A DNA stretch of 64,000 bases from the IMG/VR virus record IMGVR_UViG_3300031951_000040, one strand, 5' to 3'. This DNA is from an uncultured virus (IMG/VR IMGVR_UViG_3300031951_000040) (Duplodnaviria > Heunggongvirae > Uroviricota > Caudoviricetes). Positions 166-17,627 of this stretch are shown here, one piece after another. Made by a program: the position numbers and the translations under genes. The notes under the pieces were generated by a model. The model had not been told where the DNA came from and ran no database searches. It saw only the letters and a program-made list of their open reading frames with translations. The stretch's first letter is position 1, and the number at the start of each line of letters is the position of its first letter.

Positions 166-197
166 TTGTTTATATTGAAACTTATATTATATTTGTA
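166..197 (+). promoter_or_regulatory. Bacteroidota sigma-70-type promoter; representative of more than 25 copies in 1-23 kb
   Basis: -7 box TATATTTG at 188-195; the same TTTGG...TAnnTTTG layout lies upstream of nearly every + gene (e.g. 641-672, 1318-1349, 1625-1656, 14112-14143, 16819-16850). Confidence 0.85.
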
Positions 198-224
198 TCG
201 TTAAACCAAACAAAAGAAACAATT

Positions 225-577: not shown

Positions 578-701
578 CAAAATCCGTCTTCTGTCCCTCG
601 ACATCTTGTATCGTAAGTTGGCAAAAAAAATATAAATTTATTTGGAATATCCGTTTAATCATATTATATTCGTATTGTTAAACCAAATAAAAAGAACAAG
701 T

Positions 702-1106: not shown

Positions 1107-1216
1107 ATTTAGTTTGTTGGTTCAGACTAACCCTCATCAGTAATGGTGGGGGTTTTTTATTTGTTTCCCTTATTGATAAGGTGAACATTTCAGGACTTGA
1201 GTCAGGGCCCTGAAGG

Positions 1217-1279
1217 AAAATTGTTTGGCGCCGTATGACAAATAGTGAGTATCGTATTACACCTACGCCAACCAATTTT
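1217..1279. repeat. Inverted-pair element, GTATKACA subtype
   Basis: TTGTTTGGCG 1221-1230 ... CGCCAACCAA 1266-1275; GTATGACA at 1233, GTATTACA at 1254. Confidence 0.85.
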
Positions 1280-1374
1280 TGGATACGGACGACGGTTCTG
1301 AGAAAAATAAAAATAAATTTGGTATATAAGAAAAATAGTTTTATATTTGTATAGTTAAACCAATAGACAAAATC

Positions 1375-1590
1375 ATGAAAGTTATCTCATCTCGTATTAC
1401 GGAACAACCAAAGAGTTTGTTCGACCCGATGCCCCAAGTGTGGGTTACAATGGAAAATGGACAAGAAGAATTTTTGTTCGACTACTATCCCGATGAAATC
1501 AGTTTCACTCCCAACGAATTTGTGGGATTGACTATTGAGGAATGTAGACACCTCAAATTTGTCAAAGACAAGAAATACCTGACCTCCTGA
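1375..1590 (+). CDS. Hypothetical protein
   Basis: ORF directly after a promoter. Confidence 0.75.
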   Translation: MKVISSRITEQPKSLFDPMPQVWVTMENGQEEFLFDYYPDEISFTPNEFVGLTIEECRHLKFVKDKKYLTS

Positions 1591-1685
1591 CGGGAGATGT
1601 TGGAATTTGATTGGCAAAAAAAGATTTGGAATATAAAAGAAATAGTATTATATTTGTATCGTTAAACCAATAAAACAAAAAAGAA

Positions 1686-2060
1686 ATGTCAAGAGGAATT
1701 TTAATCGACGTAGAAAACAAAACAATTTCCGAAGTTGAAGTTGTTCGTGATGAAACTGGTAGTCAGTTACCAAGTATCTATGGACACTTAAAGTGTTCTA
1801 TTTTTGAGATTGTTAGTTACAACAACGAAAACGATGTGTATGTTGATGAAGAAGGTATAATGAGTGTTGATGAAAACACAAAGTTTTTCAAGTTGAAAAA
1901 TTACCGACAACCTCTATCGGGTAATGGGTTGATAATGGGTTACGATGATGAAACGGGTGAAAATGGTGATACCAAACTTTCACTTGAAGAAGTCAAAGAA
2001 CAAGTAACATTTATGTCCGCGTTTGACGTGGCGTTAAAAGAAAGGTTTGGTTCATATTAG
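1686..2060 (+). CDS. DUF3846-like protein
   Basis: VYVDEEG and PLSGNGLIMG motifs. Confidence 0.6.
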   Translation: MSRGILIDVENKTISEVEVVRDETGSQLPSIYGHLKCSIFEIVSYNNENDVYVDEEGIMSVDENTKFFKLKNYRQPLSGNGLIMGYDDETGENGDTKLSLEEVKEQVTFMSAFDVALKERFGSY

Positions 2061-2151
2061 GTTTGGTTTAGTTAGGTGGAAAGTCCTCGGCGAAAGTCGG
2101 GGATTTTTTTTGCTCGGATGTGTGCAGTGGAGCTGCACAGTTGCAGCTCGG

Positions 2152-2213
2152 AATTTTGGTTGGCGTTGTATGACACTATCATACATTGTATTACACCTAC
2201 GCCAAACAATTTT
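2152..2213. repeat. Inverted-pair element, GTATKACA subtype
   Basis: TTGGTTGGCG 2156-2165 ... CGCCAAACAA 2200-2209; GTATGACA at 2168, GTATTACA at 2188. Confidence 0.85.
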
Positions 2214-2349
2214 TCGGATTTGACGACAGGTGGTCATCTGTTTCGTGGTAGTTTGGCAAAATAGATAAAAAAAAATATACTCAAATGTTGTGTATATTAA
2301 AATTTGATTTATATTTGTATTGTTAAACCAATAAAACAAAAAAAACAAA

Positions 2350-2652
2350 ATGGAAAAGTACATTGATTTCTCTATCGACTACGATGGTAATTGTGAATGT
2401 GTTGATGATTTCCTCGTTAATAACGAAGAAGTAACTATTGACGATTCGGATGTTCAACCTCTAATTGAGAAGTTGGAACAACTTGAAGGGTTTTTTATTT
2501 CCGACCACCGAACCCAAGTCCGTATTTGGTGGAACGAAGATGGAACTATGGATGTCCGTTTTCGTTATTTCAATGAACCCGATTGGGGGGAATTTGATGA
2601 TTACGAACTATTGGGTATCCCACAAATTGAGTTTGAACCCGAAGTTTTTTAA
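2350..2652 (+). CDS. Acidic hypothetical protein
   Basis: ORF between a promoter and a terminator. Confidence 0.75.
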   Translation: MEKYIDFSIDYDGNCECVDDFLVNNEEVTIDDSDVQPLIEKLEQLEGFFISDHRTQVRIWWNEDGTMDVRFRYFNEPDWGEFDDYELLGIPQIEFEPEVF

Positions 2653-2805
2653 CAACGAACCCTCACCGAAAGGTGGGGGTTTTTTTATGACCTGAAGAAC
2701 TTGAGTCACGGTTCAGGGTGAAAATTGGTTGGCAAGAAAGATATAAAAAAATTTGGATTATACGAAAAAATGTTTTATCTTTGTGTTTCACCAAAACTAA
2801 TTAAA

Positions 2806-3018
2806 ATGACAAGACAAGAAGTTGTTGGTTTAATTTACCAACATATTCAAACCGAAAACGAAATGGGTTTACCACCGAATAGAAGTTGGGAAGGAATTTT
2901 TGAAGGTGATAATGATTGGGTAGATGAATGTATTAAGAGTGGATATACACTATTTCAATTACAGAATGAATTGTTCAACGAAGCGATTCAAATTTTTCGG
3001 GATAGTGAAGAAGAGTAA
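2806..3018 (+). CDS. Hypothetical protein
   Basis: ATG at 2806 after the promoter; terminator at 3025. Confidence 0.7.
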   Translation: MTRQEVVGLIYQHIQTENEMGLPPNRSWEGIFEGDNDWVDECIKSGYTLFQLQNELFNEAIQIFRDSEEE

Positions 3019-3085
3019 AGACAAGACCTCAACGAAAGTTGGGGTTTTTTTATGACCTGAAGTCCTGAGTCACGGTTCAGGGTGA

Positions 3086-3158
3086 AAATTGTTTGGCATC
3101 CACTTTACAGATTAGTAGGTTTTTACTTTACAGATTGTAAGAACGCCAACCAAAATTT
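3086..3158. repeat. Inverted-pair element with an ACTTTACAGATT direct-repeat core
   Basis: TTGTTTGGC ending 3097 ... GCCAACCAA from 3145; 12-mer repeated at 3102 and 3125. Confidence 0.8.
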
Positions 3159-3288
3159 TCCCGACGCAGCGGTTCTGAGATGTTACCGAATGGTAAGTTA
3201 CTATTTGGTTAGTTGGCAAGAAAAATAAAAATAAATTTGGTAGAATAAAAAACTCGTTATATCTTTGTATCATAAAATCGACAAAATA

Positions 3289-3837
3289 ATGAAAACACTT
3301 GTAATTCATCCAAAAGACAAATCGACACAATTTTTAGATATTGTGTACGAACCTATACCGAATAAGACAATTATCACGGGTGGGGTAACAAAAGAAGAAG
3401 TTAGAAAACTTATCGACGCCCACGACAGAGTAATAATGTGTGGACACGGAGCACCTATGGGATTGTTCTCGGTTGGACAATTTCCTGGTTCAAATGGTTT
3501 CATCATTGATGAAAGTATGGTGTACCTATTAAAAGAAAAAGACAATTCAATTTTTATTTGGTGTAACGCGGACAAATTCGTTAATCACTTTAAGTTGAAA
3601 GGTTTTTATTCGGGAATGTTTATTTCCGAAGTAGGGGAAGCGTACTATTGTGGTTTACCTGGTACCGAACAAGAAGTAGTTGATGAAAGTAACTATGGTT
3701 TTTGTGAACTTTTATCGGAGTGTATTAACGAACCACAAGATAGAATGTACGAAATCATTAAAAAGGAATATGGTAAGATTGCGGAAGAAAACCCAGTCGC
3801 ACTATACAACCACAACCGCCTGTACTTGTCGATTTAA
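3289..3837 (+). CDS. Hypothetical phage protein with a CGHG motif, alpha/beta pattern
   Basis: ATG at 3289 after the promoter; 182 aa. Confidence 0.75.
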   Translation: MKTLVIHPKDKSTQFLDIVYEPIPNKTIITGGVTKEEVRKLIDAHDRVIMCGHGAPMGLFSVGQFPGSNGFIIDESMVYLLKEKDNSIFIWCNADKFVNHFKLKGFYSGMFISEVGEAYYCGLPGTEQEVVDESNYGFCELLSECINEPQDRMYEIIKKEYGKIAEENPVALYNHNRLYLSI

Positions 3838-3930
3838 TTGGTTTAACTCGGTTGCGGTGGAAAAGGGTAGCAGAAATGTTACCCTTTTTTGTTGCGTTTT
3901 AGTTTCACCTCACAGCACGTGCTGTATCCT

Positions 3931-4030
3931 AAATTTGGTTGGCACTGTATGACACTCAATAAAGGCGTATTACACTATATGTTTTGTTTAATCTTTCGGT
4001 CAAAACATTAAACAACACGCCAAACAATTT
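3931..4030. repeat. Inverted-pair element with an internal insertion
   Basis: TTGGTTGGC ending 3943; GTATGACA 3947, GTATTACA 3967; extra atgttttg...caaaacat hairpin; GCCAAACAA from 4019. Confidence 0.8.
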
Positions 4031-4113
4031 GTGGGATGGAGACGACAGGTATGAAAAAAAATTTGGATTATACTGAATATAGTTTTATATTTGTATCGTA
4101 ATACATAATTACT

Positions 4114-4275
4114 ATGAGTAAGAAATCAATCCCAACGGAAATCAAAGTCGGTGTTTACTATTACATTGATGATGAAACTAAACAACCAATCTTTGATACC
4201 GATGAAATGAGAAATGAGTTTGAACAAAAACTTAAAGAAATAGAAGATGAAACCGAATTTAACTATGAAGAATGA
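4114..4275 (+). CDS. Small acidic protein (53 aa, not in ORF track)
   Basis: MSKKSIPTEIKVGVYYYIDDETKQPIFD...; follows a promoter with -7 box at ~4086-4093. Confidence 0.65.
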   Translation: MSKKSIPTEIKVGVYYYIDDETKQPIFDTDEMRNEFEQKLKEIEDETEFNYEE

Positions 4276-4405
4276 AACCCTTAATGGATTAAGTGTGAGA
4301 CACGTCGCACAAATAGTCCGTAGGAAAATGTTACAGAAGTCGAAACCTTCGGCGAAGGCGTACAGACGAATAAAGTTTGGCAAAAAAGATTTGGTAAACG
4401 AATAA
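4265..4405 (+). CDS. Small basic protein (46 aa, not in ORF track)
   Basis: MKNETLNGLSVRHVAQIVRRKMLQKSKPSAKAYRR...; overlaps the upstream stop. Confidence 0.5.
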   Translation: MKNETLNGLSVRHVAQIVRRKMLQKSKPSAKAYRRIKFGKKDLVNE

Positions 4406-4446
4406 AATTGTTATATATTTGTATAAACCAATAAATAATAACGACT

Positions 4447-4854
4447 ATGTATCAAGATTTTGACAACCCACGGAGTTGGGACAACCTCGGAAAAATGGTG
4501 TGTTTTCACGGACGTTACGACCTTGGAGACAAACACGACTACAACCACAATAACTACAATGGTTGGGAAGAAATGAAAAACGCAATCATCAAAGAAGAAG
4601 ATGTTTGTGTTATCTTACCTCTTTACTTGTACGACCACTCGGGAATTACAATGAACACAAGTCCGTTCAGTTGTCGTTGGGATAGTGGACAAGTTGGTTG
4701 GTACTTTGTTTCAAAGAAGAAAGTCCGTGAAGAATATGGAGTAAAGAAAATTACCCAAAGTCTTATTGACAAAGTAACCGAAGTGTTGGAGGGTGAAGTA
4801 AAAACTTACGACATGTACCTCACGGGTGAATTGTACGCAGAAGAATACGAATAG
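4447..4854 (+). CDS. Conserved phage/mobile-element hypothetical protein
   Basis: LPLYLYDHSGITM and WDSGQVG motifs. Confidence 0.75.
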   Translation: MYQDFDNPRSWDNLGKMVCFHGRYDLGDKHDYNHNNYNGWEEMKNAIIKEEDVCVILPLYLYDHSGITMNTSPFSCRWDSGQVGWYFVSKKKVREEYGVKKITQSLIDKVTEVLEGEVKTYDMYLTGELYAEEYE

Positions 4855-4940
4855 ATTTTGTTTGGTTAGGTGAAAAGTCCTCGGCGAAAGTCGGGGATTT
4901 TTTTTTATACCAGAATTCGCCCAGCCCACGCCTGGTGGGG

Positions 4941-5000
4941 ATTTTGTTTGGCGGATAACCTATTATATTTAAGTGTTTTATGTGGTCAGCCAACCAAAAT
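4941..5000. repeat. Inverted-pair element
   Basis: ATTTTGTTTGGC ending 4952 ... GCCAACCAAAAT from 4989. Confidence 0.8.
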
Positions 5001-5089
5001 TTTTACGACGCCGGGTGAAACAGTAGATGGTGTTATTGGATATTTTAAAATAAATTTGGATATCATAAAATGAATTGTATATTTGTATT

Positions 5090-5395
5090 ATGAAAAACTA
5101 TAACGACATATCATTGAATACCGATGAGGAAGTAATGAACTACCTAAAAAAATCGGAAAAAGAAGGTAAAGTGTGTGACATCATTGAAACTGAAAATTAT
5201 ATTTCGGTTGATGTTGAATGGGCATACAACTTTGAAGGTCACAAAGTGGAGAGGAGAAAATTTATCTATCTTCTTACTCGTTCTAACTTTCAATTTAACA
5301 AAACAATATCGCGTTATGTTAGAGAAAAAGACGAAATAAGATTCAGAAGAATTGAAAAAGAGTTCAAACGAATATTCAGATTGACATCAATTTGA
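5090..5395 (+). CDS. Hypothetical protein (near-leaderless start)
   Basis: ATG a few nt after the TATATTTG box. Confidence 0.65.
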   Translation: MKNYNDISLNTDEEVMNYLKKSEKEGKVCDIIETENYISVDVEWAYNFEGHKVERRKFIYLLTRSNFQFNKTISRYVREKDEIRFRRIEKEFKRIFRLTSI

Positions 5396-5470
5396 TTGGC
5401 AAAATATCCTAAAAAAAATTTGGATATCATAAAATAAGTTGTATATTTGTATTAATAAACTAATACAGAT

Positions 5471-5716
5471 ATGAAAATAAACGAAAAATTAATCGGAAAA
5501 AGAATTCGTCTCGTTTCAATGGAGAACGACCCTAACCCCGTTGAGGAAGGTTCAATGGGAACAATTTATCATGTTGGTCATGGTGTTATCAATGTCCGTT
5601 GGGATAGTGGTAGGACTCTTGGTGTAGTTGAGGGTGAAGATGAATATGAAATCATTGACACTCCCGACACTTATTTACCACCCAACAATTTTCTTGTCTT
5701 TTCGGGAAATATCTGA
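5471..5716 (+). CDS. DUF4314 domain protein
   Basis: RIRLVSMENDP...GTI...INVRWDSGRTLGVVEGED pattern. Confidence 0.75.
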   Translation: MKINEKLIGKRIRLVSMENDPNPVEEGSMGTIYHVGHGVINVRWDSGRTLGVVEGEDEYEIIDTPDTYLPPNNFLVFSGNI

Positions 5717-5809
5717 GGAGATGGTGAACCGCCGATTTTGATTGGCACAATCGTTTGTATATTCCAAAAATTCATTTGTATATTTGTCCAATAATTAAAA
5801 AAACAAAAA

Positions 5810-6169
5810 ATGTTAATTAAACTCACTTATCAAGGTAAAGGAACCCCAACACTTGTCAATCTACAAAATGTCAAAAACATTTTTAGTATCTTGGATAAAA
5901 GAAACGACAAGATAGCAACGAAGATTGAATACATAGATGGTACATATGTCAATGTTGAAGAAGACATTAAAACCATTTATGAAATTCAGTGGAAGATGAT
6001 GAATGGAAGTTGTGATATGGACTTTGAAGTTCCATCGGTTGATGAAATGATTAATAACTCATACTACGAAAATGGTGGTAATGGAGACCGCCATTGGAAT
6101 GGTCAACGAACCAACCAACCTCGTAAAAGAGTTTACCGAGACAACTACGATAATCAAAACAATTATTGA
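5810..6169 (+). CDS. Hypothetical protein
   Basis: ORF after a promoter; N/R-rich C-terminal tail. Confidence 0.7.
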   Translation: MLIKLTYQGKGTPTLVNLQNVKNIFSILDKRNDKIATKIEYIDGTYVNVEEDIKTIYEIQWKMMNGSCDMDFEVPSVDEMINNSYYENGGNGDRHWNGQRTNQPRKRVYRDNYDNQNNY

Positions 6170-6170
6170 T

Positions 6171-6311
6171 ATGTTAAAGGAAATGTTTTCAACTTTCAAA
6201 GAAGTTTACCAAGAAGACCGAAAGGAATTTTGGGATGGAATTTTGGGTGGCATTGTAATACTTATGTTTTTCCTATTGACAATGTTTGTTTTAATTCCTA
6301 TATTTGGTTAA
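6171..6311 (+). CDS. Small membrane protein
   Basis: ATG 1 nt after the upstream stop; C-terminal TM segment. Confidence 0.6.
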   Translation: MLKEMFSTFKEVYQEDRKEFWDGILGGIVILMFFLLTMFVLIPIFG

Positions 6312-6430
6312 AGTGTAATACACTTGATTTGTCGTTCATAGATTAGTTTTATTTGGTTAAGGAACCCTCACAGAAATGTGGGGGTTTTTTGTTTGCTAAA
6401 AAAATTCGTCGCCGGCAAATCCCGTGTTCA

Positions 6431-6469
6431 ATTTAGTTTGGCGGGTGTATGACAGATGCCAACCAATTT
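6431..6469. repeat. Short inverted-pair element with a single GTATGACA
   Basis: ATTTAGTTTGGC-gggtGTATGACAgat-GCCAACCAAT. Confidence 0.8.
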
Positions 6470-6573
6470 CTGAGATGGTACGGTGAATTCTGGGGTCAGA
6501 AAAAAAAAATAAAGATTTATTTGGATTATAATGAAAAGTGTATTACATTTGTATCAAATTAAAAAACATCCAT

Positions 6574-7428
6574 ATGTCACAAGAAAATCGCACACAGCAA
6601 GTTCTCAACAAAGTCGGCCTAAATTGGACCGTAAGAGAAGAAAGTATCACTACAGAAAGTGGTATCATTGTTCCTAAGAGTAAAGCAATCATCCGTGAGG
6701 ACACAAACACTGTTTTGTCTGTACATGGTGATGGTTACTTTCCTTATCAAAATCATCAGATGGTTGATTTACTAGACAAGGTATCTCAACAGGTTGGTTT
6801 ACCAATTCACAAAGGTGGTTACTTTGGTGGGGGTGAGAAAGTATACCTTCAATTGAAATCAAATGATTTGAAATTGGGCAATGACAGAGTTGAGGGTTTC
6901 ATCACTGGTGTGAATTCCTTCGATGGGTCAACTAGTTTGGCATTCGGTCCAAGTAATATTACAATCAGTTGTCAGAATTCATTCTTCGCAGCGTTCCGTA
7001 ACTTGAATGCGAAAATTCGTCACACCAAAAACATGGAGATGAGAATCGATGATATCTGTCGTGGTTTGGAGGGGGTACTCGTGGAAGAAAAAGAAATGTT
7101 CGAAGACATTAAGAAACTTTCTGAAACGAAGATGACCAAGAAACAAGAGGATTGGGTTACACGTACATTGTTCAATATCATGAAAGATGTTGATTTGAAT
7201 AGTGACAAAGATGTGTCGACCGTGACTCGTAATCGTCTTTCTCGTTTCTACGTAGACCTTAATGGTGAAGTAAAAGAGAAAGGTGATAACCTTTGGGGAT
7301 TGTTCAGTGGGGTTACTAAGTACACCACACATTCCTTAAGTAAAGGTGATAACTCTGAAAACAAGATGTTTGGAACCTATGGACAAAGGGAACGTCAAAT
7401 TTTCAAAGAATTGGTTGAGTTGGTTTAA
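6574..7428 (+). CDS. DUF932-family phage/plasmid protein
   Basis: GLNWTV, Y.PYQN, NSFDGSTS, ISCQN, IRHT, NLWGLFSGVTKYTTH motifs. Confidence 0.8.
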   Translation: MSQENRTQQVLNKVGLNWTVREESITTESGIIVPKSKAIIREDTNTVLSVHGDGYFPYQNHQMVDLLDKVSQQVGLPIHKGGYFGGGEKVYLQLKSNDLKLGNDRVEGFITGVNSFDGSTSLAFGPSNITISCQNSFFAAFRNLNAKIRHTKNMEMRIDDICRGLEGVLVEEKEMFEDIKKLSETKMTKKQEDWVTRTLFNIMKDVDLNSDKDVSTVTRNRLSRFYVDLNGEVKEKGDNLWGLFSGVTKYTTHSLSKGDNSENKMFGTYGQRERQIFKELVELV

Positions 7429-7519
7429 GATTGGTTAGGTACTCAATTAATAAGAACCCCACAGAAATGTGGGGTTTTTTATTGCTCCAAAGTTGATGGT
7501 GAGCTACGCGCAAACAGTG

Positions 7520-7583
7520 AAAATTGTTTGGCAAACTCTAAACCCAATAAAATCAATACTTTGGGTTCGAGCCAACCAAAATC
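7520..7583. repeat. Inverted-pair element, IHF-like core subtype
   Basis: TTGTTTGGC ending 7532 ... GCCAACCAA at 7571; AATCAATACTTTG 7551-7563 fits WATCAANNNNTTR. Confidence 0.8.
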
Positions 7584-7609
7584 GAGGGCTGCGCGCAACC
7601 AGGAGATGT

Positions 7610-7741
7610 TCATGTATCTTCCCAGAATCTAAATGGTTTCTCTTGATAATCTTCTTTTAGTTGTCTTCTTAACTCATAACAAAACAATATAATGACTAAT
7701 ACGAACTCAACTCCTAATGTATAAAGTATCCCTTCTATCAT
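7610..7741 (-). CDS. Small single-TM protein, antisense to the early region (43 aa, not in ORF track)
   Basis: MIEGILYTLGVEFVLVIILFCYELRRQLKEDYQEKPFRFWEDT; GATACTTAT just upstream. Confidence 0.5.
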   Translation of the reverse strand: MIEGILYTLGVEFVLVIILFCYELRRQLKEDYQEKPFRFWEDT

Positions 7742-7863
7742 AATAATAAGTATCCAAGATGGTGATGATGCAGCACAGGATAACTTTTGTTTGGCAAGAA
7801 ATATAAAAATAAATTTGGATTATACAAAATATAGATTTATATTTGTGTTCTAAATTAATTTAT

Positions 7864-8085
7864 ATGGTTTTAGAAAAACTAACTATCGGTAATGTCTACT
7901 ATGTAAAACACATAGGGAATGTTAAGTATTTGGGTAAGTGGAAAATGGATTACTATGTAGAGGGTGAAAAAGGTATTAAAGGAATGAATACCTTTAAGTT
8001 GTTGTCGTTCAGAGGTAATCAACTTCTTTCATTAACCAAAAAAGAAATTGTGAATGACCTATTAGATATTGTACGAAACGAATGA
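7864..8085 (+). CDS. Hypothetical protein
   Basis: ATG after a promoter; terminator at 8088. Confidence 0.65.
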   Translation: MVLEKLTIGNVYYVKHIGNVKYLGKWKMDYYVEGEKGIKGMNTFKLLSFRGNQLLSLTKKEIVNDLLDIVRNE

Positions 8086-8188
8086 CGAAATCACCTTCAC
8101 GGGTGATTTTTGTTTGGCGAAAAAAATAAAAAAAAAATTCACTTATACAAAAAATAGATTTATATTTGTACCATAAAACAATCTAAAA

Positions 8189-8467
8189 ATGAAAAACAAG
8201 AAAGTAACTCCGAAGAAAAAACACACACTCTTAAAGGGTGAGGGTGTTAACCAGCACACTCTGTATGGTGATTTCATTGTTGATGAAACACAAACAGATT
8301 TCGCAGAAGTTGAAGTTAGAAAGGATAGTGTATTAAGACACGAACAACCCGATGGAAGTTTCTCAAACGAACACAAACCACTCAAAGTTGAGCAAGGTGA
8401 TTGGGTTATGGGAAAACAAGTTGAGTACAATCCGTTTGAAGGTACTATCACTCAAATTTGGGATTAA
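8189..8467 (+). CDS. Small His-containing beta protein, first gene of a 4-gene module
   Basis: LLKGEGVNQH...LRHEQ...EHKPL...GDWVMGKQVEYNP. Confidence 0.7.
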   Translation: MKNKKVTPKKKHTLLKGEGVNQHTLYGDFIVDETQTDFAEVEVRKDSVLRHEQPDGSFSNEHKPLKVEQGDWVMGKQVEYNPFEGTITQIWD

Positions 8468-8469
8468 CT

Positions 8470-8874
8470 ATGGCGAACCCACTAATTCACTCAAAGAGCA
8501 GCGTCAAGCGTTGGGGTGGTAAGGTAGAAGATTATTTACCTATCCACGAACTTATTGATAGTCCGAAAGCGACAATGAACAATAATAGTTCTCGGTTACT
8601 CACCCACAACACTTGGTTCGCATACACTATCATTCCAAAAATCTTCGGTTACAACATTACTAATAGTGATGGTAAGTCAGTTGATGTTGTTGATATTGCG
8701 ATGTTACATATCGCAGAAGATTTTAGAATGAAGTTCGTTCCAACCCCACAAGATTACCTTAAACATTTAGAGGTTCAACCCTGGATGTGTAATGGGGTAA
8801 AAGATTTAGACAACCCCGAAGCGTACGAAGTAGTTAAACAATTAAACCAAAAAATCCACGAATATGCAAACTAA
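8470..8874 (+). CDS. DUF6915-like protein
   Basis: MANPLIHSKSSVKRWGG..EDYLPIH...D..K and HIAED motifs. Confidence 0.65.
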   Translation: MANPLIHSKSSVKRWGGKVEDYLPIHELIDSPKATMNNNSSRLLTHNTWFAYTIIPKIFGYNITNSDGKSVDVVDIAMLHIAEDFRMKFVPTPQDYLKHLEVQPWMCNGVKDLDNPEAYEVVKQLNQKIHEYAN

Positions 8875-9517: not shown

Positions 9518-9537
9518 ACAATTAAAAAGTAAAAGAA

Positions 9538-10227
9538 ATGAAAATCATAATTGAAAACACTCGTTTTGACTACAACATTGGTTGTCGTTTATTAAAAACA
9601 AAATATCGTAATACACCCTTTAATGGTTTGGAAGATATTTGGGAAGATATTGTTCCTATTACTTTCAAAGAAATTACAACCGAAATTCAAAACATTGAAC
9701 AGAGGCGTATCGCCGTAGGTTGTTTGGGTTTGGAAAACATTTACAAAGAAGTGAACCCCACACTTATTAAGTCCGAAACGATTTCAAAAGAAACATTTTG
9801 GGTTGGTGAGAATGGTGAACTCATTAAGAAAAACTTTGAGGACACCTACGAACTTTATGAAGTAAAAGGAAATGTTTGGGGTGAAGGTGCAGAATTTGGT
9901 TGGCGTAGACCAGATAATGTTCACTTTGTAAAGTGTAAGGACACCTCAACTGATAGGGAGTATTTTATTTGGGTGGACGCACAAAGTGTTTATCGTACTA
10001 ACAACAAAGACAAATGGTTGAGTAGTAGTGAGAACTTTGGTGAAAAGATTACCCCTATTCAAGCAATCGCGTGGACAATTCAAACAGACATTAAAGAAGG
10101 TGGAATTGAGAAAATTGTTCGGCAAGGTGATTGTGTTCTTATTAAGAAGAAAAAGAAGTGTGAAAGTGGTTCGGTTAGACACTTGACCGAAAAAGAATAC
10201 CGAAAACTATTGGTCGCAGAGAGTTAG
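9538..10227 (+). CDS. DUF6745-like protein
   Basis: NIEQRRIA, VKCKDTSTDREYFIWV, AIAWT, RQGD motifs. Confidence 0.55.
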   Translation: MKIIIENTRFDYNIGCRLLKTKYRNTPFNGLEDIWEDIVPITFKEITTEIQNIEQRRIAVGCLGLENIYKEVNPTLIKSETISKETFWVGENGELIKKNFEDTYELYEVKGNVWGEGAEFGWRRPDNVHFVKCKDTSTDREYFIWVDAQSVYRTNNKDKWLSSSENFGEKITPIQAIAWTIQTDIKEGGIEKIVRQGDCVLIKKKKKCESGSVRHLTEKEYRKLLVAES

Positions 10228-10316
10228 TTGTTTCATTTTTATTGGTTAAAACCCTCACTCAAAAGGTGGGGGTTTTTTATTGCTCCGAAGTTGCTGCTGG
10301 TTGCGCTGCTGTTCGT

Positions 10317-10378
10317 GATTTTGTTTGGCATTCTGTAAACCCAATAAAATCAATGGTTTGGGTTCGCCAACCAAAATC
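10317..10378. repeat. Inverted-pair element, IHF-like core subtype
   Basis: TTGTTTGGC 10321-10329 ... GCCAACCAA at 10366; AATCAATGGTTTG 10348-10360. Confidence 0.8.
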
Positions 10379-10552
10379 AAGGGCTGGTTGCTGCTGTTGC
10401 ACAACTGGTTTTTTCTAGTCATTGCTTCTGGTTTTACTGGTTTCCTGCTGCGGGGACCTGGAATCCACCAAATTGTTTGGCAAAAAAAATAAAAAAATTA
10501 TTGGATTATATTCTATATACTTTTATATTTGTGGTGTTAAATTAATAAACAT

Positions 10553-10960
10553 ATGTACACGACAATTAAAGATTATTATTCCTTCTTGAAAAAACAAAAA
10601 GAGGAAAAAGAGAATGAACTTTCTAAGATAAAAGAAAGTGTTAACCAACAAATGGATGTTTTTATGTCCGAACATGGTTGGACACGAAAGGGTAAAGTTC
10701 AAACCAAAAAGTATACTCAAAAAGTAACTTACACCAAAAAGTTCAATGGTAAGGATATCGTAATTGAGTATCGTGGTAACTACCAAGATGATTTTGTTGA
10801 TGGTGGTTGCCCCGAGTTCGTACACGATAAATCAATACCTAATTGTGTTGAGAAATTTCAAATGGGTTACTTTCATTGGAACGACCAAGACACAAGTGGT
10901 TGGAGTTTAGATGTGGTAATGGAACGAATGGAAGTGTTCTATAACAAGTACACCTCGTAA
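10553..10960 (+). CDS. Hypothetical protein
   Basis: ORF between a promoter and a terminator. Confidence 0.75.
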   Translation: MYTTIKDYYSFLKKQKEEKENELSKIKESVNQQMDVFMSEHGWTRKGKVQTKKYTQKVTYTKKFNGKDIVIEYRGNYQDDFVDGGCPEFVHDKSIPNCVEKFQMGYFHWNDQDTSGWSLDVVMERMEVFYNKYTS

Positions 10961-11102
10961 GAGAAACCCCGAAAGGGGTTTTTTTATTTCTCAGGACTCT
11001 GAGTCACGGTTCAGGACGGAAATTAGATTGGCAAGAAAAATAAAAAAATATTTGGATTATATTAATTACTGATTTATATTTGTATTATAAAACGACAAGA
11101 CA

Positions 11103-11321
11103 ATGATAAAATCTATTGATGAAAAACAAGGAGGTATTGAGATTGACCTCACAGGACCTGATGGGAACGCGTTCGTTCTTATTGGTCTCGCCTCAAAATG
11201 GGCGAAACAACTCGGTTTGGACTCCAAGAAAATTCAAGAGGAGATGATGAGTGGGGATTATGAGAATTTGATTGGCGTGATTGAAAAGTATTTCGGTGAC
11301 TATGTAACTCTTTATCGTTAA
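11103..11321 (+). CDS. Conserved small phage protein
   Basis: IDLTGPDGNAF...MMSGDYENL motif. Confidence 0.75.
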   Translation: MIKSIDEKQGGIEIDLTGPDGNAFVLIGLASKWAKQLGLDSKKIQEEMMSGDYENLIGVIEKYFGDYVTLYR

Positions 11322-11325
11322 TCAT

Positions 11326-11529
11326 ATGGCACAGAAAATTCAAATTTTATCCCCTGATGGGTTCACACTCGAAAGGGATGTACCTTACTACAAGTCGCAC
11401 AGAGCGGCGTGTAAGGCGTTCGAACAATGGAAGAAAGGGTACGAAACTCAAGGGTATTATTCTTCCGTAAAATATGGTCGCATACCATTAGTTGACCTTG
11501 AGGATTATTGTCAATTAAATTATTTGTAA
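11326..11529 (+). CDS. Hypothetical protein
   Basis: Operonic spacing. Confidence 0.65.
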   Translation: MAQKIQILSPDGFTLERDVPYYKSHRAACKAFEQWKKGYETQGYYSSVKYGRIPLVDLEDYCQLNYL

Positions 11530-11530
11530 C

Positions 11531-11851
11531 ATGAAAAATTTCAGTCAAGTTTGTGTTTGGCCCGCAACTCTTATCGGTAAGTCCAACATTAAGGAATTCG
11601 AAAAGTGGTTAAAACAAGAATTCGGTGTTCGTGCAAAATATTGTGAGGAAGTAGAAACACTACCTACACCAGGCGAACCTGAAACGGGTGGAAGAAACGA
11701 TGTGTTCTTTAGAGTCCATCAAGATGACATTCCAAAATTCGCAGTACCCCGTTTACAAATTGGTATTCGTTGGTGGGAGGATGTATTACTTAATGGTAAT
11801 GGTGTTCTCTATCCCCAAGATATTTTGGAAAGATACCCGAAGACATGGTGA
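11531..11851 (+). CDS. Hypothetical protein
   Basis: Operonic spacing; GGRNDVFF and IRWWED motifs. Confidence 0.7.
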   Translation: MKNFSQVCVWPATLIGKSNIKEFEKWLKQEFGVRAKYCEEVETLPTPGEPETGGRNDVFFRVHQDDIPKFAVPRLQIGIRWWEDVLLNGNGVLYPQDILERYPKTW

Positions 11852-11924
11852 ACAGTGAATATTGATTGGCAAAAATAACTTGTAAAAAGAAATAATCTTT
11901 ATACCTTTGTAAAAAACCATTCGT

Positions 11925-12176
11925 ATGACAAATCAAGAAATAACTACCCATTGGGTAAATCAAAGTGAGAAAGTCCTAAAGGGACGAGTTATCAAATCAG
12001 TTCGTTATCTTACCGATGAGGAAATGGAACTTATGGGTTGGTACAAGAGACCAATTTGTATTGAGTTGGACAACGGAACACTATGTATTCCTTCTATGGA
12101 TGATGAGGGAAATGATGGTGGAAGTTTGTTCTACCAAGAAAAAGGTAAAGAACTTGATGTATTACCTGTAATCTAA
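11925..12176 (+). CDS. Hypothetical protein
   Basis: After a promoter; PSMDDEGNDGG motif. Confidence 0.7.
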   Translation: MTNQEITTHWVNQSEKVLKGRVIKSVRYLTDEEMELMGWYKRPICIELDNGTLCIPSMDDEGNDGGSLFYQEKGKELDVLPVI

Positions 12177-12214
12177 AAACACTTGACAATGTAAAATATG
12201 ATGTGTAACTTTTT

Positions 12215-12289
12215 ATTGGATTACATTTCATAGTTGTAATTTGTGTTTGGTTTGACACACTAAAGGGGTTCTTCGGAATCCCTTTTTTT
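12215..12289 (+). ncRNA. Candidate antisense small RNA complementary to early-gene leaders and start codons
   Basis: Upstream TTGACA-N17-TAACTT (12183-12211); two small hairpins plus a terminator; 12226-12255 pairs with 201-230. Confidence 0.5.
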
Positions 12290-12549
12290 GTTTCTAAAAT
12301 ACTGAAAATCTTCGTTTTAACATACGCCAGGGGGAAAACTGGACGACGGCTGGACGATTTTGTTTGGCAAGAAATACTAGTATTCTTGGTGAATATCCTT
12401 AAAAGTTTTAGTATGTTTGTCATACACAAAGTCAAAGATGTATGTGGAAAAACTTTTTTGAAAAAACTTTAAAAAAAATTTGGAAAAAAAGAAAAACTAT
12501 TATATCTTTGTACCCACATTAAATCTTTAATCTAAAATTAGAAACGAAA

Positions 12550-13305
12550 ATGAGTACAAAAAATGTTCAAGTAAAGTTCACCCAAAATTTGGGTATGTTC
12601 AAACTTCACAATGTAAATCGTGAGGTAGACTCTCCACGCGTTAAGCGTATTACAGACTCGATGAAGAAGGACGGATTAAAACTCGTTCCAATCATTGTAA
12701 ACTCCCAGTATGTGGTTGTAGACGGACAACACCGACTAACCGCAGCAAAAGAAGCGGGTAAAGGTATCTACTTTATTGTAGACAACTCAATCCCCAACAC
12801 CACGAAAGGTATCTTTGAAGCCGCACGTAAGTTCAACCAGAACATGAAAGAGTGGGGTAAGAAAGATTACATTCATGGTTTTTCCGAACAAGGAAACAAA
12901 TCTTACAAAACTTTGGAAGATTTTTCAAAAGAGTTTCCGATGTTTTCTTTGACCGAAAGAATTATGTTACTACAAAATTCTGGTACTCGTCATTGTGACA
13001 AACAAGATTTTGCGGATGGTAAGTTTGTTGTTGGTAATATGGAAACCGCCAAAGAATGGGCGAATAACCTACTCCAACTGAAACCTTACTTTGAAAAGGG
13101 TTACAACAAATCGGTATTTGTTCGTACTATTCTTACCATTATGGAAAAGAAACCCGATTTTAAGTTTGAAGAATTTTTACATAAAGTAAAACTTCGTCCA
13201 AGTTCAATCTATATGTGTGGTGATAAAAAATCATACGCGGAAATGATTGAAGACATTTACAACTACAAGCGTCGTAATGAGGACAAGTTGAACCTTCGTT
13301 TCTAA
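12550..13305 (+). CDS. ParB/Srx N-terminal domain protein
   Basis: NREV...PIIV...VVDGQHRLTA motif. Confidence 0.8.
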   Translation: MSTKNVQVKFTQNLGMFKLHNVNREVDSPRVKRITDSMKKDGLKLVPIIVNSQYVVVDGQHRLTAAKEAGKGIYFIVDNSIPNTTKGIFEAARKFNQNMKEWGKKDYIHGFSEQGNKSYKTLEDFSKEFPMFSLTERIMLLQNSGTRHCDKQDFADGKFVVGNMETAKEWANNLLQLKPYFEKGYNKSVFVRTILTIMEKKPDFKFEEFLHKVKLRPSSIYMCGDKKSYAEMIEDIYNYKRRNEDKLNLRF

Positions 13306-13560
13306 CTTTGGATTAGGGTTAGTGATTGGGGTGACCGAAAGGTTACCCCTTTTTTTTGCTCAAAATTTCACAAGATGTAACATCCTGAAGACGACTCCAG
13401 ATTTTGTTTGGCGGAGTTTTCAACACACAAATGTTTGTAATCCAATAAAAAAGACACTTTTTGTATAAGGTTTTGACAAAAAAGTTGAACAAAGTGAAAA
13501 TATTTGTTGTTTATCGAAAATATTCTTATTACTTTTGTACTGTAATTCAAAAACTTGAAT

Positions 13561-13932
13561 ATGATAAAAAAACCAAGAAAGACTACGGCTAATTCTCTGA
13601 AGAAGTCTTTGCACGAAATTCGTGAATGCCTTAATGAGAGTTTACCAAACTTTGAGAAAAAGGAAATGGTGGGAATTAAATTTTCTCGTGTTGGTACTCG
13701 TTATCACATTGAAAATGCACCAGTTCCTCCTACCGATAAGATTGGTGTACAGCTTGAGCGTTCTTTCAATGATTTTATGCGTAAGCTGAAAGTAACTTAT
13801 GGTGGAATGAAACTTGAAGGTTCGATGGTGTTAGGGACCAAAGACGATTTGTTTTTGGTTGGCTACAACAACTATGAACGTAAAGGTAAAAACCTCACCA
13901 AAAAGGGACATTCAATAGAAGGGGTTCTTTAG
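13561..13932 (+). CDS. Basic hypothetical protein
   Basis: ATG at 13561 after a promoter; terminator at 13965. Confidence 0.65.
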   Translation: MIKKPRKTTANSLKKSLHEIRECLNESLPNFEKKEMVGIKFSRVGTRYHIENAPVPPTDKIGVQLERSFNDFMRKLKVTYGGMKLEGSMVLGTKDDLFLVGYNNYERKGKNLTKKGHSIEGVL

Positions 13933-14035
13933 TTTAGTATATTGATTTAATGTTCGGTTCGAAAAACCCTCACAGAAATGTGGGGGTTTTTTATTGCTCG
14001 AATGTGTGCGGAGGAGCTGCACAGTTCGTCTATTA

Positions 14036-14061
14036 AATTAGTTTGGCGCCCGCCAAACAAT
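14036..14061. repeat. Minimal inverted-pair element with almost no core
   Basis: aattagtttggcg-cc-cgccaaacaat. Confidence 0.8.
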
Positions 14062-14163
14062 ATCGCCCTGGGAAGAACAGGTCCCTCCTGAAGAAAAAAA
14101 ATAAAAATAAATTTGGAATATAAAAGAATTCGTTTTATATTTGTATTGTTAAACCAATATTAT

Positions 14164-14934
14164 ATGGAGTACAGAAATAAAACCCAAGCCAGAAAGGAAA
14201 CTGGAATCAATTATTTAGGTTCAGTTAACCTGACATCAAAACACGCTAAGGCGTACAAGTATGATGAATTAACCTACAGTCTTTACCTCGCACCCGCGGA
14301 CTTAAGTGGTTACGAAGTTTGCCCAATGAGAAACGCGGAGTGTACTGCACTATGTTTAAACGAATCTGGTATGAATCGAATGAACATGAGAGATGACATG
14401 ATTACTGAGAGTAGAATTAAAAAAACAAAATTGTTTTTCGAACATCGCCAGTATTTCATGCAATGGATGGTTGCAGAAATTGAGGCGGCAAAAAAGAAGG
14501 CAGAAAAACAAGGTTATCACTTTAGTGTTCGTTTAAATAACACTTCAGACATTTCACCCGAATCTTTTCATATGGAGATAGATGGTAAAAGAAAAAACAT
14601 TTTGCAATTGTTTCCTAATGTTATGTTTTACGACTACAGCAAAGTGGGTAAACGAATGGAGTTAGTTAAGAAGTATAAGAACTACGACTTAACATTTTCA
14701 TTTAGTGGTACAAACTTTTCAGATTGTATTAGTATGTTGAACAATGGTATACGAGTTGCCGTTGTTTTCAAAAAAGAAATACCCAAAAAGTTTTGGGGTA
14801 GAAAAGTTATCGATGGTGACTTATATGATATGAGATATCGAGATGAGAACGACATTATTGTGGGATTAAAATATAAAGTCACACGAAAACGACCTCAAAA
14901 AGATAGTAAGTTTATAGTAGACCCCTCACAATGA
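14164..14934 (+). CDS. Gp88-like (radical-SAM-related) phage protein
   Basis: VCP...C...CL, VRLNNTSD, FYDYSK, IDGDLYDMR, IVGLKYK motifs. Confidence 0.75.
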   Translation: MEYRNKTQARKETGINYLGSVNLTSKHAKAYKYDELTYSLYLAPADLSGYEVCPMRNAECTALCLNESGMNRMNMRDDMITESRIKKTKLFFEHRQYFMQWMVAEIEAAKKKAEKQGYHFSVRLNNTSDISPESFHMEIDGKRKNILQLFPNVMFYDYSKVGKRMELVKKYKNYDLTFSFSGTNFSDCISMLNNGIRVAVVFKKEIPKKFWGRKVIDGDLYDMRYRDENDIIVGLKYKVTRKRPQKDSKFIVDPSQ

Positions 14935-14983
14935 GGGGTTTTTTATTGCTTGAAGATGTTGCGCGCATGATGCTGGTCATCGG

Positions 14984-15046
14984 AATTTTGTTTGGCATTC
15001 TGTAATCCTAATAAAATCAACACTTTAAGTTGTGCCAACCAAAATC
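14984..15046. repeat. Inverted-pair element, IHF-like core subtype
   Basis: TTTGTTTGGC ending 14996 ... GCCAACCAA at 15034; AATCAACACTTTA 15015-15027. Confidence 0.8.
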
Positions 15047-15209
15047 ACCTGGCTTCAGACTGGTTGCAACAGCCAGTTTTACTGGTCATTTTGCTGGTGA
15101 CCCTGGTTAATCCAAAAACTTGGTTGGCAAGAAAACAATAAAAAAGATAAAAAATTATTTGGAATATAATAATAACAGTATTATATTTGTATCATAAAAC
15201 AACATAACA

Positions 15210-15812
15210 ATGGGACAATATTATAAACCAATCATTTTAGGTAACACCCCAAAAGAGGGTGAACACGAAACAGTTAAAGCGTGGATGTATTCACACGAGT
15301 ACGACAACGGACTCAAACTGATGGAGCATTCCTATCAAGGGAACAACTTCGTTTCAACTTTTGAAAAACAATTAACCCGTAGAGGTGAACATTACAAAAG
15401 TCGTGTAGTGTGGGCGGGTGATTACGCAGGAGAAGAACCAGGTGTAAAAGTCATTTCGGAAGGGAAGGAGTACGATGCAAATTTGTATTCACTTTGTAAT
15501 GATGAAAACCAAATCAAACCCAAAGTGTCATCAACGGATGAATACCCCTACATTGTAAACCACACCAAAAAAATGTTCGTGGATAAAAACAAAGTTCCCG
15601 AAATTCAAGGATGGGATGGTGTAAAAATTCACCCTTTACCACTATTAACTAGTGAAGGTAACGGAATGGGTGGGGGAGATTTTAGAGGTGATGATGAAAA
15701 TGAGATTGTTGGTTCGTGGGCAAGAGATGTTATCTCGGTAGAAAAAGATAGTCCACTCGTAACCAATGGGATGATGAATTACACCGAATTGATTTTTGAT
15801 TTGAAAGAATAA
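15210..15812 (+). CDS. Conserved phage protein (MGQYY N-terminus)
   Basis: GLKLMEHS, VVWAGDY, IHPLPLLT...GGGD, GSWARD motifs. Confidence 0.8.
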   Translation: MGQYYKPIILGNTPKEGEHETVKAWMYSHEYDNGLKLMEHSYQGNNFVSTFEKQLTRRGEHYKSRVVWAGDYAGEEPGVKVISEGKEYDANLYSLCNDENQIKPKVSSTDEYPYIVNHTKKMFVDKNKVPEIQGWDGVKIHPLPLLTSEGNGMGGGDFRGDDENEIVGSWARDVISVEKDSPLVTNGMMNYTELIFDLKE

Positions 15813-15906
15813 AAAGGTCCCCCGTCACAGGGGGATTTTTGTTTGGCAAAAAAACATTTGGAATATAAAAGAATTAGTATTATATTTGTATTATAAACCA
15901 ATCAAG

Positions 15907-16296
15907 ATGAGTAAAAGTATTAAAGTAAGGTTCAATCTCGGTAGAGGTAAGAACTACATGAAGTGGAAAGTACAACACCCTGATGGTAGTGTATTGTATT
16001 ACAGTCCAACAGATAATCAGTTGGTCATGACAGGTTGCACATTTAAGAACCACAGGAAAACAGCACAGAAGATTTTCGATGGTGGTAATAAAACAGTATG
16101 TGCGTGGATACTTTGTAAGGACATCAAGATTTACACAGGTCAACCATACAAGGATGAAAGTCGTAGGGTTCGATACAATCCACGAGTTCAACCCAACTGG
16201 TTATTCGATGGTCACATCATGGACAATGATGGAGTACCACAATTGCACACCATCGATTACGGAGTGTACATCACGACAGGTGAAGGTGAAATTTAG
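15907..16296 (+). CDS. Hypothetical phage protein
   Basis: KTVCAW and VRYNP motifs; ATG after a promoter. Confidence 0.7.
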   Translation: MSKSIKVRFNLGRGKNYMKWKVQHPDGSVLYYSPTDNQLVMTGCTFKNHRKTAQKIFDGGNKTVCAWILCKDIKIYTGQPYKDESRRVRYNPRVQPNWLFDGHIMDNDGVPQLHTIDYGVYITTGEGEI

Positions 16297-16317
16297 TTTG
16301 GCCTAAAATAAAACAAC

Positions 16318-16794
16318 ATGGACTTAATTAAAGCACAACGGTTAGCAGAGAAGTTAATTCACAAACACAAGTTAGATGTTAAGGGGTGGACATTTGCGTA
16401 TGACAATGCAAAAAGTAGGTTTGGGTGTTGTAAATACAGACCTAAACAAATTACACTATCCAAAGTATTGACATTACTTAATGATGAAAGTCATGTAAAG
16501 AATACTATTCTACATGAGATTGCACACGCACTTTGTCCTGGTCAAAAACATAACCATGTATGGAGGTCGAAAGCGATTGAAATAGGTTGTGATGGACATC
16601 GTTGTTATAGTAGTAAAGTAGTTGAAACACCCGAAGCAAAATATATTGCAACATGTGTTGGTTGTGGTAAGGTATCCAAAGCCCATCGTTTAAGAAGTAG
16701 GTCTTATTCATGTAGCAATTGTTCGGGTGGTAGTTACAACCCAAAGTACAAATTGGAGTTCAGACCAAACCCCATATTCACAGGGGGGATTTAG
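16318..16794 (+). CDS. SprT-like zinc metalloprotease
   Basis: TILHEIAHAL...H...W plus C-terminal CxxC pairs. Confidence 0.85.
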   Translation: MDLIKAQRLAEKLIHKHKLDVKGWTFAYDNAKSRFGCCKYRPKQITLSKVLTLLNDESHVKNTILHEIAHALCPGQKHNHVWRSKAIEIGCDGHRCYSSKVVETPEAKYIATCVGCGKVSKAHRLRSRSYSCSNCSGGSYNPKYKLEFRPNPIFTGGI

Positions 16795-16873
16795 TTTGGC
16801 GACAAAGTTGAAAAAAAATTTGGTATAAAAGAAAAATTGTTATATCTTTGTAATACAATTAAATTAAAAAAGT

Positions 16874-17464
16874 ATGGGATACACAACCGATTTCGAAGGT
16901 GGATTTGAATTCAGTCGTCCACTTACTAGTGATGAAAAGAATTACATCACCAAGTTCAACAACACTCGTAGAATGAAACGAAATGTTGAGAAACTCTATG
17001 AGTTATTTAAGGGTGAACACGGAAACCCTTTTCTACCAAAAGAAGAAACCTACGGAAACGATGGTGAATACTTTGTTGGTGGTAATGGGTTCGCAGGTCA
17101 AGACAAGGATGATAGTATTGTCGATTACAATACACCTCCAGGTCAACTAGATTTTCTAACAACTAACTACAACGAAAGGTGGACACAAAATGATTTGAGA
17201 ACACGAGAGGGTAAATGTCAACCTGGTTTATGGTGTCAGTGGACTACGGATGAAAATGGAACTCATCTAATATGGGATGGTGGTGAGAAGTTTTACAACT
17301 ACGTTGAGTGGTTGAAATATATCATCAATCATTTCTTTGAGAAGTGGGGTGTGAAATTAAATGGTGAGGTTTATTGGAAAGGCGAGGATGGTGAGGACAT
17401 GGGTAAGATTGTTGTAAAGGACAACTGGGTCACAGTAAAATACGCGAGGATTACTTATGATTGA
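16874..17464 (+). CDS. Conserved phage protein (MGYTTDF N-terminus)
   Basis: QPGLWCQW, WDGGEKFYNYVEWL, LNGEV.W.GE motifs. Confidence 0.8.
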   Translation: MGYTTDFEGGFEFSRPLTSDEKNYITKFNNTRRMKRNVEKLYELFKGEHGNPFLPKEETYGNDGEYFVGGNGFAGQDKDDSIVDYNTPPGQLDFLTTNYNERWTQNDLRTREGKCQPGLWCQWTTDENGTHLIWDGGEKFYNYVEWLKYIINHFFEKWGVKLNGEVYWKGEDGEDMGKIVVKDNWVTVKYARITYD

Positions 17465-17627
17465 TTGGTTTAAGGAGAGAACCCCACAGAAATGTGGGGT
17501 TTTTTATTAAAAACCTCGTACACATATATTATGGGATGGACATTGATTTAGGTTGGCAACAAAGTTGAAAATAAATTTGGTATAAAAGAAAAATTGTTAT
17601 ATCTTTGTATTACTAAAACATTTTATT

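Follow-up and report, generated by a model that had tools for sequence, protein, structure and literature searches.

The window analysed here, a stretch of 64,000 nucleotides (nt; 64 kb), is the first part of a 118,569-base record of an uncultured virus (IMGVR_UViG_3300031951_000040, G000), which is itself contained in a 288-kb record, G001, at 99.999% identity. Bases 1-24000 hold a plus-strand array of about 28 cassettes, the genes of which are small and mostly without a family. Each cassette has a TAnnTTTG promoter, which we take to be of the Bacteroidota type, an A/C-rich leader (A 0.54, G 0.06 across the array) and often an intrinsic terminator; the genes are called early on account of these promoters. 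Between stop codon and terminator lie short segments, termed trailers, that are complementary to the leaders. These anti-leader segments, of which the two longest are named units A and B, are the subject of this study. They appear to mirror the phage's own translation starts immediately ahead of terminators, and we favour, with somewhat better than even confidence, a role as antisense RNA that would block translation initiation. The only well-supported trans target is predicted to be a late gene outside the window.

Two near-complete genomes, G001 and its relative G002 (311 kb), were used for target ranking. Both encode bS21 and a sigma-70 factor, and G001 carries genes for T4-type tail sheath, tail tube, head protease and terminase as well as a type IX secretion cargo protein. 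The hosts of bS21 jumbo phages are predicted to be Bacteroidetes in the accessible part of PMC9723584, with which this gene content seems to fit. The group comprises large lytic freshwater phages of Bacteroidota, uncultured and widespread. Two scans for relatives supplied loci at 64 to 100% identity. The leaders and short trailers that are discussed below are as follows.

197..237, plus strand: early leader and start of gene 225, with TAAACCAA at 202-209; ranks second among the partners of unit B
672..706, plus strand: early leader and start of gene 702, with TAAACCAA at 679-686; ranks third among the partners of unit B
1107..1128, plus strand: short TTGGTT trailer before terminator 1129
1353..1377, plus strand: early leader with TAAACCAA (1356)
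2050..2080, plus strand: anti-leader trailer; 2050-2070 places an antisense ATG within the last codons of gene 1686-2060
3826..3863, plus strand: anti-leader trailer, 12/12 to 1353-1364; 14-nt complement to an early-type leader outside the window
4855..4876, plus strand: short anti-leader trailer
7420..7454, plus strand: anti-leader trailer of a DUF932 gene, two TTGGTT
10228..10249, plus strand: anti-leader trailer with antisense ATG
13933..13964, plus strand: trailer with conserved TGTTCGGT
17461..17479, plus strand: anti-leader trailer, 12/12 to leader 15894-15905

The anti-leader observation is confirmed. A first-pass annotation had reported that early leaders share TAAACCAA and that trailers carry the complement. 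The leader motif is exact at all eight positions quoted (202, 679, 1356, 1663, 2324, 4424, 14150, 15894) and occurs 24 times in the window against 8.9 ± 3.1 expected (0/100 shuffles). The reverse complements reported at 2050-2070, 6326-6360, 3837-3848 and 17461-17472 are exact, and that at 10228-10250 is exact save for its final quoted letter, which is absent. Both matches of 12/12 were found again, 3837-3848 to 1353-1364 and 17461-17472 to 15894-15905. TTGGTT is carried by 9 of the 12 trailers of at least 15 nt in 432-17479; four further terminators have trailers of at most 5 nt, and one more overlaps its stop codon. The density of TTGGTT[T/A] is 22.0/kb in trailers, compared with 0.3/kb across 24 stretches of early coding sequence; the 16 spacers that follow terminators have none. 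The longest anti-leader case, 12225-12256, had escaped the first-pass annotation.

The comparison with dinucleotide-shuffled trailers that the annotation proposed was performed on 27 leaders and 15 trailers, including two that lie shortly before the window in G001. The mean longest complement was 8.67 against 7.35 ± 0.26, a value that 0/1000 shuffles reach, and the same-sense match between trailers and leaders was at chance (631/1000 shuffles). Rarity outside the early genes, the second proposed check, was also observed, since none of 20 non-early terminator trailers (9 from G001, 11 from G002) holds TTGGTT; these control trailers are A-rich. The same-sense leader motif is present in some non-early trailers, for example at window 50228-50240 (minus strand). 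The antisense ATG, described as frequent in trailers, is borne out only on pooling. In this genome alone TCAT is present in 3/15 trailers, a count that 110/1000 shuffles reach, while across six lineages pooled TTCAT is found in 19/70 trailers against 5.3 expected (0/1000 shuffles), where the rows include homologous copies and are not independent. Viewed on the minus strand, the segments look like a leader followed by an ATG, and they might be taken for the start regions of small genes there. This is the least credible of the explanations weighed here, as the place expected for a promoter is occupied by the plus-strand terminator, no minus-strand promoter was found there, and the reading frame opened by the antisense ATG of unit B meets a stop within only 3 to 7 codons in L010, L012 and L014.

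Across relatives, the letters of orthologous trailers turn over while their anti-leader character stays. The anti-leader excess is seen in L008, L009, L010, G002 and L014, where it is reached by 5, 0, 3, 19 and 15 of 1000 shuffles, respectively. In a six-by-six lineage table, trailers fit the leaders of their own lineage best (1/720 permutations), with or without the trailers of a ParB-like gene; kinship and inverted copying of own leaders could contribute to this fit. The short tails (1107, 2061, 3838, 4855, 7429, 10228, 17465) have 8-12 nt of complement to AACCAA leaders, which are enriched in the array (10/45 genes versus 12/295 elsewhere). In the genome-wide pairing of G001 versus G002, no one-to-one conserved target emerged for them. 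The short tails could instead be a 3'-end signal (an RNA-binding protein site, a nuclease site or a termination aid) or inverted leader copies of no consequence that arose through template switching, with only unit B and the fold-back of the ParB-like gene being functional. This is a genuine possibility, held well short of even: no short tail has a conserved target, own and next leaders pair at chance, the trailers of early genes are rich in U and G (T 0.41, G 0.20), and a lineage that copied its own leaders in inverted form would show the own-lineage match too, yet the complementarity exceeds that of dinucleotide shuffles, orthologous tails change letters and remain anti-leader, and TTGGTT is confined to the early side of the 20-trailer control. 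For the short tails taken by themselves, weak multi-target seeds, carried at the 3' ends of early transcripts, that would damp AACCAA-type leaders and a 3'-end signal are rated nearly even.

Outside the array, the sigma-70 gene G000:C1:90846-91658 (minus strand) and a gene for 114 amino acids (aa), G001:C1:14359-14703 (minus strand), have TGAACCA leaders in G001 and G002, with host-type promoter boxes in 3/4 cases, and several trailers pair with them at moderate rank. The sigma-factor leader was considered as a target of the 13933 trailer on the strength of an 11-nt complement seen by eye, but it ranked 23 in G001 and 10 in G002 and is kept as a lead only.

Of all the segments, unit B provides the clearest case for an antisense role. 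Its parts within the window are given here.

12183..12211, plus strand: promoter-like site of unit B (TTGACA, 17 nt, TAACTT), its -35 and -10 letters invariant or nearly so in 21 variants
12216..12292, plus strand: unit B, candidate small RNA, ends predicted

A hairpin at 12219-12241 bears an anti-AUG in its loop, the seed occupies 12225-12252, and an intrinsic terminator follows at 12263-12292. Pattern scans returned 13 viral and 24 metagenome stretches which, with the earlier loci, make 24 distinct variants, 21 of them aligned. In these 21 the promoter letters are conserved though they lie outside the search pattern, and the terminator stems vary in sequence with hairpin and T-run kept. The 5' hairpin is paired in 126/126 cells, and predicted folds place parts of the seeds of both unit A and unit B in short hairpins. 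The anatomy of promoter, seed and terminator is thereby conserved, and unit B is likely a stand-alone small RNA, predicted to pair over the 5' untranslated region (UTR) and AUG of a late gene.

That partner was obtained by ranking the unit B seed against all gene starts, with all open reading frames included. A late 84-aa gene is first of 428 in G001 (-29.7 kcal/mol, 17 contiguous pairs), and the orthologous late gene is first of 475 in G002 (-35.6 kcal/mol, 24 contiguous pairs); 0/25 shuffled seeds reach these energies in either genome. The pairing spans 5' UTR and AUG, and the two target proteins are only 30% identical. Furthermore, a sequence model built from unit B copies only was run on 20 records, and in 10/10 close-operon records without a B locus (G008-G016, G025) its best match is the 5' UTR of the target gene on the opposite strand, so that the late partner is the same in every close record tested. 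No such match was given in five distant phages, where the operon's second gene stands beside other genes; the genes upstream of it there score -5 to -15 with unit B. One seed position tracks the target, being A:U in G001 and G:C in G002, and swapping it costs 5.9 kcal/mol on the G002 target. Two viral fragments that were checked for B plus target contain no operon. A protein 99% identical to the unit B target (P0017) and the unit B of L110 possibly belong to a third genome with both.

The late 5' UTR might, on the other hand, be produced in large amounts late in infection and act as a sponge for unit B, the working targets being early leaders (225, 702) or host mRNAs. In G001, and in this phage only, leaders 225 and 702 rank second and third as partners, and in G007, which has both unit B and its target, the antisense matches of the B model are the same two leaders, the target not being among the 150/246 candidates scored. 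A non-early trailer of G002 near base 162700 (minus strand) also contains a 14-nt complement of the unit B seed, a same-sense copy of the target motif which could be a decoy. Nevertheless, the best early leader of G002 is 11 kcal/mol weaker than the late UTR, the best early partners vary by lineage, and the AUG within the paired stretch belongs to a gene that is intact and conserved. Exact target-pattern searches in 185,579 prokaryote genomes gave 0 matches and 1 unrelated match, none in Bacteroidota, inexact host targets not being tested. We therefore regard a sponge as unlikely and retain the late gene as the target proposed for unit B.

The target gene, G001:C1:5888-6142, encodes a membrane protein with two hydrophobic stretches seen by eye. 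Upstream of it is a TATTTAT motif that is found at 59/347 genes, including those of tail sheath, tail tube, head protease and terminase. It heads a late envelope operon (L038:5888-9475), syntenic in G002, in which the 84-aa membrane protein is followed by a signal-peptide protein, a 638-aa type IX cargo with a weak cohesin match and two membrane-type genes. No Pfam or PHROG family matches the target protein, which belongs to a large unnamed family (6066 matches); the nearest named Atlas cluster is DUF2644 at 0.92, 38% of members. No endolysin gene lies beside the target in G001, and in two distant phages (L173, L175) the operon's second gene follows what is presumably an endolysin gene, judged by its N-terminus. 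The target may be holin-like. When 50,697 phage records were searched for a cultured relative, nothing matched the second gene of the operon, and the matches to unit B were at chance level. A conserved non-coding unit of ~190 nt (L038:5570-5760, minus strand; L068:3340-3525, plus strand) is oriented divergently to the target gene and lies ahead of a tRNA cluster; it contains a promoter of host type, a stretch resembling GGAGG, a tail that is rich in U and G and looks anti-leader-like, and a terminator.

Unit A is organised similarly.

6276..6306, plus strand: promoter-like site of unit A (TTGACA, 17 nt, TATATTTG), a perfect host-type -7 box
6311..6392, plus strand: unit A, candidate small RNA, with anti-AUG and anti-leader at 6326-6360 and terminator at 6364-6392

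Its promoter box, which TTGGTTAA at 6304 overlaps, is also present in L008 and L009 and, as a -7 box, in L017 and L022; it was not found in L010 or L012. The partners of unit A are numerous and weak (best z score about -3 to -4) and include the unit B target in G001. When a sequence model of unit A was run on 16 records, most of its matches were terminators and none was an antisense target. Like unit B, unit A is likely a small RNA, predicted to have several weaker partners. A class of middle genes with TTGACA-17 promoters, read by the phage sigma factor, was considered and dropped, the 15 and 17 such genes forming no clear class.

A different arrangement is predicted for the ParB-like gene.

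12512..12552, plus strand: leader ahead of the ParB-like gene; by pairing rank the cis partner of 13292-13330
13292..13330, plus strand: 3' end and trailer of the ParB-like gene (12550-13305), predicted to fold back on its own leader

For this trailer the own leader ranks first in 5/5 lineages, with z scores of -6.2 and -5.1 genome-wide, and in the cross table the own pair is the best of five in 3/5 rows. The ParB-like mRNA likely closes on itself, its 3' end pairing with its own leader. Such a fold-back of 5' and 3' ends is known in mRNAs such as hok, in which a 3' element pairs with the leader of its own transcript. The ParB-like 3' element is predicted to do the same, but no antitoxin RNA or toxin is indicated here, and the fold-back is clear in only one of the cassettes of the window. 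As a general rule, fold-back on the own cassette was rejected (rank 1 in 5/82, 4.8 expected, all from the ParB-like gene), as was pairing with the leader of the next cassette (4/79, at chance). The only other near-own pairing is that of 17461-17472 with 15894-15905, possibly on one read-through transcript.

Several points weigh against the antisense interpretation and against unit B as its best example. The most distant lineage is without an anti-leader excess (G003 153/1000 shuffles, L022 357/1000 shuffles). Seed conservation among the B variants is partly by construction, because they were gathered by a seed pattern, and covariation in the B hairpin is not above shuffles (89/500). The tracking of the target by one seed position is paired covariation from two genomes, and the same position is also explained by the internal hairpin of B. 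The perfect-match length is modest, 16 nt in G001 (4/200 shuffles) and 14 nt in G002 (36/200), and early leaders of G001 nearly equal the late target (-29.1 and -26.3), one surpassing it with a longer seed window. For unit A and the short tails, no target common to G001 and G002 was found; the pairing table used lacks the B pair because the overlap filter had removed the target gene of G002. Leaders rich in A and C are a general feature of this phylum, so that a tail rich in U and G will pair with a large number of them. That the target belongs to a family named in neither Pfam nor PHROG also counts against the reading. Contigs from RNA runs X3, X4, X5 and X8 cover parts of the array, some without differences, but these data are assembled contigs that give no ends, strand or level and may include DNA, and the listed piece over unit B (12106-12256) enters from the upstream gene.

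Taken together, the proposal of the first-pass annotation, a network of 3'-UTR-derived antisense regulators among early genes, is upheld in one respect and revised in others. An antisense role at the RNA level remains the favoured reading, because the segments are strand-specific, lie before terminators, turn over their letters and match their own lineage (1/720). Derivation from 3' UTRs seems too narrow for units A and B, which have promoter-like sites of their own, and one trailer would pair in cis. The restriction to early genes also seems too narrow, as the only well-supported trans target is late and outside the window and as G001 and G002 have no pair of early genes in common.

The same annotation offered a second possibility, that leader and trailer are DNA inverted repeats bounding gene cassettes; such cassettes would be mobile and the repeats read by a recombinase. 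Relatives do gain or lose whole array cassettes, and a 196-aa cassette with leader, trailer and terminator (window 16842-17609) is present in an unrelated phage (L036:7301-7932 and L037:5761-6528) at 93 to 96% identity. However, all 7 of the 7 aligned junctions cross over in direct repeats, mostly the TTGGC motif with promoter, otherwise terminator with spacer, and the transferred cassette spans one promoter -7 box to the next. On the plus strand, the TTGGC motif plus promoter was counted 25 times in 1-24000 and not once in the remaining 94 kb. The ATTTWGWTTGGC-form motif, with about 50 sites in 141-23195 (plus strand), precedes most early promoters and is nearly absent elsewhere in the genome; it is dense in the array of G002, was not found by the same pattern in that of G003, and cassette gains and losses cross over at or beside it. 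Trailers show no preference for their own leader (the 5/82 given above; mean rank fraction 0.60), and tyrosine recombinase PF00589 is absent from 3/3 records, two of them >90% complete, other recombinase families not having been searched. Inverted repeats bounding the cassettes are therefore very improbable. Inverted pairs of another kind, TTKGTTGGC with GCCAACCAA, separated by 10 to 80 nt and in several cases enclosing GTATGAC / GTATTAC repeats, were observed between terminator and next promoter at the following positions.

525-575, 1225-1277, 2160-2207, 3093-3151, 3939-4025, 4948-4999: inverted pairs, part 1
6438-6468, 7528-7577, 10325-10372, 14043-14058, 14992-15044: inverted pairs, part 2

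The cassettes recall those of T4-type phages, in which, as far as the accessible text of PMC2839356 goes, small non-core early genes within PeSL promoter-terminator cassettes are shuffled by recombination. The array is alike in its exchange between repeated promoter-terminator units, as seen in the 7 junctions and one transfer. PeSL accounts for the cassette boundaries and not for the anti-leader trailers, and antisense segments are unmentioned in the accessible part of that source. The shuffling of cassettes is PeSL-like and does not involve the anti-leaders.

Some further features were recorded at the ends of the sequence. A tandem repeat of ~72 nt occupies window 1-135, the start of the record, where L016 differs, and G000:C1:110000-118569 consists of long low-complexity repeats with extreme GC skew (about 0.7) that run on into G001. 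Searches for Rfam families in 1-25000 gave 8 weak matches, each far under its cut-off, and in Flavobacterium phage lillamy9-1, used as a control, only one terminator passed the filter.

For unit B, the following course of action is envisaged. It would be transcribed from its own promoter as a separate RNA species; the anti-AUG loop would contact the late mRNA, after which pairing would zip along the UTR, and initiation of the late 84-aa gene would be blocked until late transcription exceeded unit B. A broader timing circuit, in which anti-start RNAs of the early array hold a late holin-like gene and its envelope operon silent while others shut early leaders, is put forward tentatively, as doubtful in its full extent. 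If true, a lytic phage would set its clock for lysis or surface remodelling by a trans-encoded small RNA. The candidate small RNA and its proposed target form a concrete and testable pair, by which a variable early array would be linked to a late envelope operon that is conserved and lies ~216 kb distant in the record. No published description of such elements in phages of this group was found by a search that did not cover subscription journals, and the accessible main text of PMC9723584 on bS21 phages has no mention of small RNA, non-coding, intergenic or early.

One close comparison is bacterial. According to the accessible portion of PMC6847099, initiation in Bacteroidetes proceeds without Shine-Dalgarno pairing and is tuned by structure and A-rich positions, so that masking of an A-rich start region is a known route of repression there. 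FopS and GibS of Bacteroides thetaiotaomicron repress by pairing over the start regions of the first genes of operons (PMC11697453, in its accessible part), and on this basis a similar action is suggested for unit B. Like FopS/GibS (RF04319), units A and B have a seed, an intrinsic terminator and a promoter-like site of their own, and the unit B seed, as in FopS, complements the region around the start codon of an operon's first gene. The TTCATAG anti-start core at the 5' end of FopS-10 is also seen, by eye, in both units. By the same source, FopS sequence occurs in one phage. Here, however, no match to FopS was obtained in 1-25000 at E up to 5, and the best RF04319 scores were 19.7 bits in G000 (13298-13359, neither A nor B) and 20.8 in 4 relatives against a threshold of 56 bits. 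Moreover, FopS is described there as RbpB-bound with SusC-type targets of the host, whereas the best partner here is the phage's own late membrane-protein gene and the copies are heterogeneous. The units would thus work like FopS but stand outside family RF04319.

A second comparison is offered by SviR of the phage satellite PLE, described in the accessible part of 10.1101/2022.04.08.487710 as a conserved small RNA acting in trans, by which the translation of phage genes is reduced in lytic infection. Unit B is likewise a trans-acting candidate, and the targets of SviR include a putative structural gene. The difference is that SviR comes from a satellite and acts, in Vibrio, on the helper phage of that satellite, while here RNA and proposed target share one lytic phage genome. 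By analogy with these systems, our results suggest that Bacteroidota phages reinvented FopS/GibS-type masking of A-rich start regions for their own timing, with the leader motifs acting as address tags.

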